A stretch of DNA of 63,042 nucleotides, counting the filler, from Diploschistes diacapsis (Eukaryota), in NCBI GenBank assembly GCA_023645945.1. It is 4 parts of 4 records of this genome, joined end to end, with 100 filler letters (N's around TTAATTAATTAA, not from the genome) between each part and the next. Parts side by side here need not be neighbours in the genome. Positions count along the whole stretch, not along the records: positions 47,364 to 63,042 come from JALAIB010000542.1; 3 more parts are not named here. One strand, given 5' to 3'. A program made the position numbers and the translations under genes. The notes beneath the pieces are model-generated. The model was not told the origin of the DNA and did no database searches. It saw nothing but the letters and a program-made list of their open reading frames with translations. This document shows positions 54,766-55,994 of the stretch, in pieces; positions within the stretch are counted from its first letter, which is position 1; each line of letters opens with the position of its first letter.

Positions 54766-55994
54766 ATGTCGGAACAATTGGTGATGCGTGGTACCCTCGT
54801 GGGCCATAGCGGCTGGGTCACGAGCTTAGCTACATCCCTTGAGAAGTATGTTTGATGTGCGAGCTATATTGATTAGATGCTGATCGTTATACTAGCCCGA
54901 ATATGCTTTTGTCTTCAAGTCGCGACAAATCACTCATTATATGGAACCTAACCCGAGACGAGACGAACTACGGGTACCCGAAACGAAGCTTACACGGCCA
55001 TTCACACATCGTCTCCGACTGCGTTAGTCTAGCAAAAAGGACCTGTATGAGCATGGGCTGACAGAACAAGGTTATCTCTTCCGACGGCGCTTACGCTCTA
55101 TCTGCTTCTTGGGACAAGACCCTCCGTCTCTGGGAGCTCTCAACCGGTGCCACCACCCGCCGCTTCGTCGGCCACACAAACGATGTTCTCTCTGTCTCCT
55201 TCTCTGCCGACAACCGTCAAATTGTTTCTGGCTCGCGTGACCGAACAATCAAGCTTTGGAACACGCTCGGCGATTGCAAATACACCATCACGGACAAAGG
55301 TCATACCGAATGGGTGTCATGCGTCCGGTTTAGTCCCAATCCTTCGAACCCGGTCATTGTGAGCGCTGGCTGGGATAAGCTTGTCAAGGTAAAGTTCGAG
55401 TGTTTTCCTTACTCATCTTCGGCACAAGATGCTTGCACTTATTTAGTATTTGCTACTTCAGAGCTTCGGCTATGAGACAATCGCTTTCACCGGCGCACTG
55501 ATGCCCCATGGCAATTCACAAGAATTTAATCCTGAAGTTCCGCGTTTCCTCCTAACGCGCCTCAATAGGTATGGGAGCTCGCCTCATGCCGCATCCAAAC
55601 CGACCACATCGGCCACAACGGCTACATCAACACCGTAACCATCTCCCCCGACGGCTCGCTCTGCGCATCTGGTGGAAAAGATGGAGTTACCATGCTCTGG
55701 GATCTCAACGAGTCCAAGCACCTTTACTCCCTCCCCGCCGGCGACGAGATCCATGCCCTCGTCTTCTCTCCCAACCGATACTGGCTGTGTGCCGCGACGT
55801 CACGGCAAATTGTCGTTTTCGATCTCGAGAAGAAGAGCAGGGTTGATGAGCTGAAGCCGGAGTACAACGCGGTTGGGAAGAAGAGCCGCGAGCCGGAGTG
55901 TACCAGCTTGGCGTGGAGCGCTGACGGACAGACGCTGTTTGCCGGGTACACGGATAACTTGATTCGGGCTTGGGGTGTGATGTCGAGGGCTTGA
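54766..55994 (+). CDS. cpc-2: RACK1 / G-beta-like WD40 ribosome-associated protein (Cpc2/CpcB/Asc1); 4 coding exons
   Basis: [67 protein letters not shown] and [15 protein letters not shown]. Introns 54846-54895, 55023-55070 and 55389-55568; probable 5' UTR intron 54691-54742. Confidence 0.98.
55421..55505 (+). ncRNA. U24: Intronic box C/D snoRNA, U24 (snR24)-like
   Basis: Inside RACK1 intron 3 (yeast ASC1 also hosts snR24). Terminal stem GGCA/TGCC, degenerate C box AAGATGC, guide TATTTGCTACT with D' CAGA (as in yeast U24), UUCG hairpin, C' ATGAGA, D box CTGA at 55498-55501. Confidence 0.85.

Follow-up and report, generated by a model that had tools for sequence, protein, structure and literature searches.

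The genome of Diploschistes diacapsis, a lichen-associated fungus, is considered here through one stretch of 63,042 nucleotides (GenBank assembly GCA_023645945.1; parts of four records joined end to end, filler included), which is called the window throughout. The fungus is called lichen-associated because, among the sequencing runs listed, DNA of this stretch is best represented in a lichen metagenome; a run from a named organism and a rock metagenome share 0.74 and 0.34 of its sequence words, and no RNA run is among those listed. On the plus strand of the window, at 54766-55994, lies a RACK1/ASC1/cpc-2-like gene, and the third intron of that gene holds a box C/D small nucleolar RNA (snoRNA) of the U24 family at 55421-55505. 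Two regions of this snoRNA are complementary to large subunit (LSU) ribosomal RNA (rRNA). The region upstream of the D' box is the classical U24 guide. The region upstream of the D box is an exact 12-nucleotide complement of a filamentous-type fungal LSU sequence in the L1 stalk, a mobile part of the ribosome that handles the exit of transfer RNA (tRNA) from the E site. The prediction examined in this report is that the D-side region, a leftover of an older guide, acts as a 12-nucleotide guide for an L1-stalk cytidine, both in this fungus and in several other lineages.

Host gene and anatomy of the snoRNA

The RACK1/ASC1/cpc-2-like gene has four exons (54766-54845, 54896-55022, 55071-55388, and 55569-55994, stop codon included), and its spliced translation is open over 316 amino acids with WD40 character. 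The protein is read as RACK1/ASC1/cpc-2, a name that comes from inspection of the translation and from synteny rather than from comparison with a named database. Intron 3 (55389-55568, plus strand) is 180 nucleotides long, has GT..AG borders, and lies in phase 0 after codon 175. The double-guide snR24 of Saccharomyces cerevisiae sits within an intron of ASC1 (PMC4848094; this and the other papers cited were available in part, and statements about them extend to those parts).

Homologues were collected from metagenomic assemblies with a pattern composed of the D' guide, the D' box, a gap, and the C' box, which returned at least 115 loci; all counts of loci and homologous sequences given in this report are counts among the matches listed. 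Forty-five of the 115 loci have the ancestral D guide (U/C)CACCAAGAUC(U/G), 69 are single-guide, and one is cut off. A tblastn comparison with the host protein of the window recovers that protein around the snoRNA at 98 of the 115 loci. Both flanking exons are found in the same arrangement at 72 of them (at least 110 of 137 sampled codons), and the position of the snoRNA in a RACK1 intron is therefore deeply conserved. Eight double-guide loci (L052, L070, L073, L077, L078, L087, L103, and L132) have RACK1-like exons upstream on the opposite strand; at these, the snoRNA lies beside the 5' end of the RACK1-like gene and is not intronic.

The snoRNA is 85 nucleotides long, lies on the plus strand, and is of the U24b/CD51 type, as aligned by eye to Neurospora crassa CD51 and to the 69 single-guide metagenomic homologues. 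Its ends are joined by a terminal stem in which GGCA (55421-55424) pairs with UGCC (55502-55505), and this stem is present in both the minimum free energy and the centroid folds. The fold of the whole RNA is no better than that of shuffled sequences (z = -0.26), as is expected for C/D snoRNAs. The C box (AAGAUGC, AAGATGC in the DNA; 55426-55432) is followed directly by an accessory element, UUGCAC (55433-55438), which is complementary to the LSU sequence GUGCAG just 5' of the U24 target region (as read in L031 and related contigs). Next come the D' guide (55445-55457) and the D' box CAGA (55459-55462). An internal hairpin, GC-UUCG-GC (55463-55470), separates the D' box from the C' box (UAUGAGA, TATGAGA in the DNA; 55471-55477), and both boxes align with those in Suppl. 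Fig. S1 of van Nues 2011; in the homologues, a hairpin of variable sequence occupies the same place between the D' and C' boxes. The D-side region (55485-55496), which includes a UCACC remnant (55487-55491), is followed by an A and then by the D box (CUGA, CTGA in the DNA; 55498-55501). Every coordinate and motif given for the element by an earlier reading of this DNA, made without database searches and called here the sequence-only reading, is confirmed.

The C box was described in that reading as degenerate. It does depart from the consensus RUGAUGA, with A for U at position 2 and C for A at position 7, but this is a trait of the family and not a defect of one copy. Thirteen of the 70 single-guide sequences, counting the window, have GGATGC, and boxes of the form AGATG- were scored by script in eight single-guide homologues. 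Among labelled species, A or G at position 2 is found in Coccidioides (AAGATGT) and in A. terreus and Ascosphaera (both AGGATGT; van Nues 2011, PMC3116282, Suppl. Fig. S1). Because related variants occur in both the homologues and the labelled species, the unusual C box is regarded as a family trait with an intact GAUG core, the part from which the k-turn is built.

The single-guide U24 family

The snoRNA is best explained as a single-guide orthologue of yeast snR24/U24, of the kind known from Schizosaccharomyces pombe (U24b), N. crassa (CD51), and human (U76). The D' guide AGTATTTGCTACT (RNA AGUAUUUGCUACU) forms 13 base pairs, one of them G.U, with LSU AGUAGCAAAUAUU, and the duplex energy with flanks is about -20 kcal/mol. 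Position 5 of the guide pairs with the A of GUAGC, which is A1449 in yeast, A1430 in N. crassa, and A1483 in S. pombe. Within this guide lies TATTTGCTACT (55447-55457), which had been recognized from the sequence as the classical U24 guide; that assignment holds, and the guide is identical to that of CD51. It very probably directs methylation of the adenosine equivalent to yeast A1449.

The two U24 guides reside on separate RNAs in several well-described species. In N. crassa, CD51 (EU780975) is an 87-nucleotide intronic snoRNA with the D' guide AGUAUUUGCUACUU followed by CAGA; its target is 26S Am1430, and it is listed as the homologue of S. pombe U24b and human U76 (Liu 2009, PMC2780460). 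A separate N. crassa snoRNA, CD50, carries ACCACCAAGAUCU for Cm1418, and in human the two guides are divided between U24 and U76 (Liu 2009, PMC2780460). S. pombe has two intronic snoRNAs, U24 (Cm1471) and U24b (Am1483, SPSNORNA.11) (PMC4138321 supplement). The U24 alignment of van Nues 2011 (PMC3116282, Suppl. Fig. S1) includes 24 labelled Pezizomycotina rows and three fission yeasts, and all of these are single-guide.

The D. diacapsis snoRNA lacks the D guide (A)UCACCAAGAUCU that would address the C1437-equivalent, and UCACC alone remains of it. The yeast-type D guide CCACCAAGATCT occurs nowhere in the window with up to one mismatch allowed, and a CD50-like partner is likewise not in the window. 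The sequence-only reading had taken this absence as the loss or outsourcing of the ancestral guide in this lineage. Two separate snoRNAs carry the guides in S. pombe, N. crassa, and human, so the CACCAAGAUCU guide was not lost in this lineage, and that part of the proposal falls; the 24 of 24 single-guide rows among the labelled Pezizomycotina point the same way. The assignment to U24 survives in a narrower form: the element is an intronic box C/D RNA of the U24 family, of the single-guide U24b/CD51/U76 type rather than a classical double-guide U24. As the two U24 guides split long ago, half of the supposed guide switch was already known.

Compared with S. cerevisiae snR24/U24 (RF00069), the snoRNA described here has the same host gene, D' guide, and box order, whereas the yeast RNA is a double guide with the D guide AUCACCAAGAUCU for C1437, a guide absent here. 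Its likeness to CD51, U24b, and U76 lies in its intronic position and in the target adenosine equivalent to yeast A1449. It also shares the internal hairpin, a C' box ending in AUGAGA, and the UCACC remnant upstream of box D with the CD51/U24b type. The D' guide and D' box are identical to those of CD51, and the C box likewise ends in C, although position 2 of the C box is A here and U in CD51. The D-side region differs among the three, reading CUUUCACCGGCGCA here, CAUCACACGCA in CD51, and AAAUCACCAUAUGUU in U24b, and the latter two do not match the L1-stalk site.

Two accessory elements have been annotated in this family by van Nues 2011 (PMC3116282). A (U)CACCAA remnant before box D is annotated as extra base-pairing to LSU 1438-1444 in all non-Saccharomycotina homologues, and a UUGCA element after box C as pairing with the rRNA sequence 'GACGU' just upstream. 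Both are recognizable in the D. diacapsis snoRNA, as UUGCAC (55433-55438) and UCACC (55487-55491). The CACC that the sequence-only reading found to be shared with the yeast-type guide is thus retained, but corrected to this remnant with its annotated extra pairing. In contrast to the annotated arrangement, the second element keeps CACC only, and the rest of the region is complementary to a site about 1,000 nucleotides away. The D-side form common in Pezizomycotina, CACCAAUGCA (e.g., L053, L105, and L124), is complementary to the LSU sequences that flank the old C1437 site on either side (UGCA ... UUGGUG; context L031). In that pairing GAUC would be looped out, and the arrangement extends the accessory pairing annotated by van Nues 2011.

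A search with the Rfam U24 model had been suggested as a check on the family assignment, and it returns no match at the locus even at expect values (E) up to 10. At the gathering threshold, Rfam models find only a tRNA in the whole window, and hence no rDNA; at E up to 10 on 55300-55650 (351 nucleotides), the sole result is a nematode snoRNA on the opposite strand, a weak match attributed to chance. The SNORD24 model (RF00069) matches 8 of 8 double-guide metagenomic homologues (L044-L138) and 0 of 12 single-guide homologues (L053-L124). The miss at this locus is explained by the failure of the model on single-guide homologues, and the U24b/CD51 branch is without a working Rfam model.

The D-side region and its predicted L1-stalk target

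The LSU sequences used for comparison are contaminants in prokaryote assemblies. A scan for the U24 target region yielded 39 eukaryote LSU contigs, among which only L033, a non-fungal contig, reached the L1-stalk region; the same assemblies later yielded fungal contigs that include the site. Viral contigs scanned for an LSU 18-mer gave 0 matches. A 777-kb contig labelled as a Nitrosopumilaceae metagenome-assembled genome (L037) has a stretch like eukaryote LSU around the U24 target site, and could be mis-binned or chimeric.

A filamentous-type fungal LSU contig from a bacterial assembly, L155, reads GGGAGCTTCGGCGCCGGTGAAATACCAC at the L1-stalk site and contains the 12-nucleotide target GCGCCGGUGAAA. 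Two yeast-like contigs (L156 and L157) read GCGCCAGTGAAA, an A variant of the target, and the plant-like L159 and the non-fungal L033 differ further. The D-side 12-mer TTTCACCGGCGC (RNA UUUCACCGGCGC) forms 12 contiguous Watson-Crick pairs with GCGCCGGUGAAA over positions 2-13 upstream of box D. In the window, the sequence complementary to the target has a single occurrence, exactly at 55485-55496. The sequence-only reading had proposed this complementarity and had placed the predicted modified nucleotide by the D+5 rule, and on both points it is borne out: the match is exact, in register, and present in a filamentous-type LSU, and the nucleotide opposite G55493 (position 5) is the leading C of the CC in GCGCCGG. 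The duplex with L155 has the form expected of a methylation guide, for which at least 10 contiguous base pairs should start one or two positions upstream of box D and position 5 should face the nucleotide to be modified. Presumably the same site occurs in the LSU of D. diacapsis itself.

By way of a yeast-like contig, the target C corresponds approximately to C2478 in yeast numbering. The numbering is anchored on the drawing of snR190 and G2395 in Suppl. Fig. S3 of van Nues 2011, an anchor that correctly places U's at 2416, 2417, and 2421. Identity of the target with yeast Cm2197, the site of snR76, was considered and rejected, as the site numbers about 2478 and the snR76 target in the same figure is different.

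Human SNORD102, the guide for 28S Gm4020, presumably acts on a G that lies two nucleotides 3' of the counterpart of the predicted C; a literature search on this point was unfruitful. If it does so, this strand of the L1 stalk is targeted by a snoRNA in another organism too, although the human RNA is unrelated, has another host gene, and acts on another nucleotide. L1-stalk methylation at about C2478 is not known from the yeast list.

The energy of the D-side duplex is -24.3 kcal/mol, as compared with about -20 kcal/mol for the D' guide of this RNA and -8 to -12 kcal/mol for three sequences of the common or near-common form. For comparison with chance, an anchored score was defined as the number of pairs minus half of the G.U pairs and was computed against 7,163 nucleotides of fungal LSU fragments, which are partly redundant. 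The window scores 12.0. Among 540 trials with shuffled D regions, 1 reaches a score of at least 12, 5 reach at least 11, and 26 reach at least 10, and among real single-guide sequences, 16 of 70 (window included) score 10 or more. The guide of the window has no alternative target in the scanned LSU pieces. Two homologues have alternative LSU matches of 14 base pairs with three G.U pairs each (L064 with the yeast-like contig L036, and L060 with L155 near position 898), and the targets of these two RNAs may differ from the L1-stalk site.

The same site, register, and target C recur in 9 of the 69 other single-guide loci (L055/L145, L069, L060, L093/L113, L122, L096, and L076), over 10-12 contiguous positions with G.U allowed. 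The retargeting of the D-side region is supported by this recurrence. Third-codon identity of RACK1 exons between the carriers and the window is 0.52-0.63, and ranges from 0.44 to 0.71 among all seven carriers in the alignment; intron architectures also differ among the carriers. On a host-gene tree of 411 columns the carriers are scattered, and at least seven changes of state are needed for the new type of D-side form. A single clade of carriers is rejected by the approximately unbiased (AU) test (p = 1.3e-8 with 7 rows; p = 6e-4 with 10 rows, adding L064, L094, and L118), on a tree that is short and poorly resolved, with GC content at third codon positions (GC3) of 0.55-0.91 and with a group defined after the first tree, though by an independent trait.

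The differences among the carriers are patterned. The 13 new-type or near-miss sequences depart from perfect pairing at 10 places by our own count, and at 7 of these a G.U pair is retained. The distance from CACC to box D is exactly 6 nucleotides in 8 of 8 sequences with a GG-type tail after CACC (window included). Tail lengths in all single-guide sequences range from 4 to 16 nucleotides, and AATGCA (11 sequences) is the only commoner class.

Five of the sequences with the new or nearly new form (L093, L113, L096, L064, and L076) have an extra conserved stretch, UUU(C/G)CC(U/G)UC, upstream of the D-side guide. The CGCC of this stretch is complementary to GGCG within the guide, so that the stretch may close a hairpin on the guide itself or serve as an accessory element.

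Outside the host gene, a tRNA-Ser with anticodon AGA (56364-56444, minus strand; Rfam 57.9 bits, also found by ARAGORN) lies about 370 nucleotides beyond the stop codon of the RACK1 gene and is transcribed in the opposite direction.

Alternative explanations and evolutionary meaning

The anatomy, the synteny, the in-register complementarity to a fungal LSU, and the recurrence in other lineages are observed, and the following mechanism is proposed to explain them. The third intron of the RACK1/ASC1/cpc-2 gene would yield the snoRNA, which would accumulate. Its D' guide, aided by the accessory UUGCAC and CACC elements, would direct 2'-O-methylation of the adenosine that corresponds in this LSU to yeast A1449. 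The stretch before box D derives from the old C1437 guide. In this lineage it changed from the common CACCAAUGCA to CACCGGCGCA, with UUU in front, and the CACCGGCGCA region would now serve as a second guide, directing methylation in the L1-stalk hairpin at the first C of GCGCCGG (about C2478). Whether the D-side region works as a second guide for this cytidine is, in our estimate, an evenly balanced question.

Several observations weigh against a working D-side guide. In the C/D motif that would serve it, the C box departs from consensus. The form common in Pezizomycotina, CACCAAUGCA, by itself pairs with the L1-stalk site at 8 of 10 positions, and the form found in the window is only two or three transitions away from it, a change of AA to GG being enough; the case for retargeting is weakened by this short distance. 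Intermediates (AACGCA, GACGCA, and GATGC) exist among the homologues. Given the near-pairing of CACCAAUGCA and the existence of intermediates, chance arrival at the new form in a few of several dozen lineages is plausible. Some homologues come close but are in states that would not guide: the mismatch is A.C and falls on position 5 itself in L094 and L118, and in L064 it falls on position 7. L113, L096, and the near-miss L064 are GC-rich (GC3 0.82-0.91, where measurable), and drift from AT to GC may therefore contribute at these loci; the GC3 of the window is average (0.68). In the parts of the literature available, the GG form is found in none of the 24 labelled Pezizomycotina rows of van Nues 2011 (PMC3116282) and is absent from N. 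crassa CD51, and no N. crassa guide is given for 26S 2400-2599 (both Liu 2009, PMC2780460). Table 1 of Jochl 2008 has no equivalent site; by our own reading, the nearest is A. fumigatus Gm2506, about 50 nucleotides away.

In the main competing account, the RNA is a working single-guide U24b/CD51 whose D-side region is a vestige kept for accessory pairing (CACC with the GGUG by the D' target), while the 12-nucleotide match is a by-product of drift and no methylation follows. This account gains from the annotation of the region by van Nues 2011 as extra pairing to LSU 1438-1444, from the two or three transitions and known intermediates that separate the common form from the new one, and from the plasticity of the D-side region, in which tails vary from 4 to 16 nucleotides. 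Neither the site nor the form appears in the supplement of van Nues 2011, in Liu 2009, or in Table 1 of Jochl 2008, as far as these were available. Drift, however, has to account for a perfect 12-mer in exact register that arises in only 1 of 540 shuffles, and for 9 of 69 homologues that address this site in this register without being a single clade. The changes are mostly of the kind that preserves wobble pairing, and the spacing is fixed. The form in the window loses part of the accessory pairing for which the region would have been kept (CACCAA to CACC, and UGCA to CGCA). On balance the vestigial account is less likely than not.

Two other explanations carry far less weight. The D-side region could pair with the L1-stalk hairpin or another RNA without catalysis, or could guide a target outside the scan (18S rRNA, 5.8S rRNA, a small nuclear RNA, or a tRNA). 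In its favor are the non-consensus C box, the extent of the scan, which covered 7.2 kb of partly redundant LSU fragments, and the alternative matches of L060 and L064. Yet a methylation guide needs precisely the register observed, in which pairing begins at position 2 and position 5 faces a C, and the guide of the window finds no second target in the scanned LSU pieces; this explanation is improbable. It is more improbable still that the locus is a decaying or unexpressed copy with a broken C box, as the A for U at C-box position 2 and the lack of any Rfam family at E up to 10 might suggest. The GAUG core, D box, terminal stem, D' and C' boxes, and 13-base-pair D' guide are all intact, and the snoRNA is the sole copy at a conserved position in the host gene. 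A or G at position 2 is common in single-guide homologues (13 GGATGC and 8 AGATG-) and occurs in labelled species, and a model that misses 12 of 12 single-guide RNAs tested and matches 8 of 8 double-guide RNAs places the Rfam miss with the model rather than with the locus.

The predicted L1-stalk guide has parallels among fungal snoRNAs. A point in its favor comes from the survey of Canzler 2018 (PMC5824354), which reports that, of 68 C/D families in fungi, 14 have a target limited to certain lineages on a side that is otherwise non-functional. Cases such as the D targets of snR87/CD_10 and snR53/CD_11 in Pezizomycotina resemble the present one in combining a conserved D' guide with a lineage-restricted D guide predicted from conserved complementarity. 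The main text of that survey, in the part available, mentions neither U24, CD_50, or CD_51 nor positions 1437 or 1449; its Supplemental Table S14, which lies outside this comparison, may list the case. The string CACCGGCGC has 0 occurrences in the supplement of van Nues 2011, and a literature search with the 13-mer GGTGAAATACCAC gave no relevant match. The same kind of search found no RiboMeth-seq map of rRNA from a filamentous fungus. The D-side 12-mer is new relative to the supplement of van Nues 2011, Liu 2009, and Table 1 of Jochl 2008, to the extent that these were available.

In the most far-reaching reading, a vestigial guide retained for accessory pairing after U24 split into two snoRNAs was converted by two or three transitions into an L1-stalk guide, either several times independently or once anciently with many losses, which would have given rise to a new methylation in some Pezizomycotina lineages including D. 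diacapsis. This history is offered tentatively, at a little less than even confidence. Should the D-side guide prove non-functional, what is left is an ordinary orthologue of U24b/CD51. Because the SNORD24 model misses this branch (0 of 12 tested), single-guide U24 snoRNAs go unannotated in most Pezizomycotina genomes. If the D-side guide does work, the family would offer a clean stepwise case of the birth of a snoRNA target, in which a dead guide is kept for accessory pairing, drifts until two point mutations separate it from another rRNA site, and is then recruited, and the fungus would add a lineage-restricted 2'-O-methylation to the mobile L1 stalk of its ribosome.

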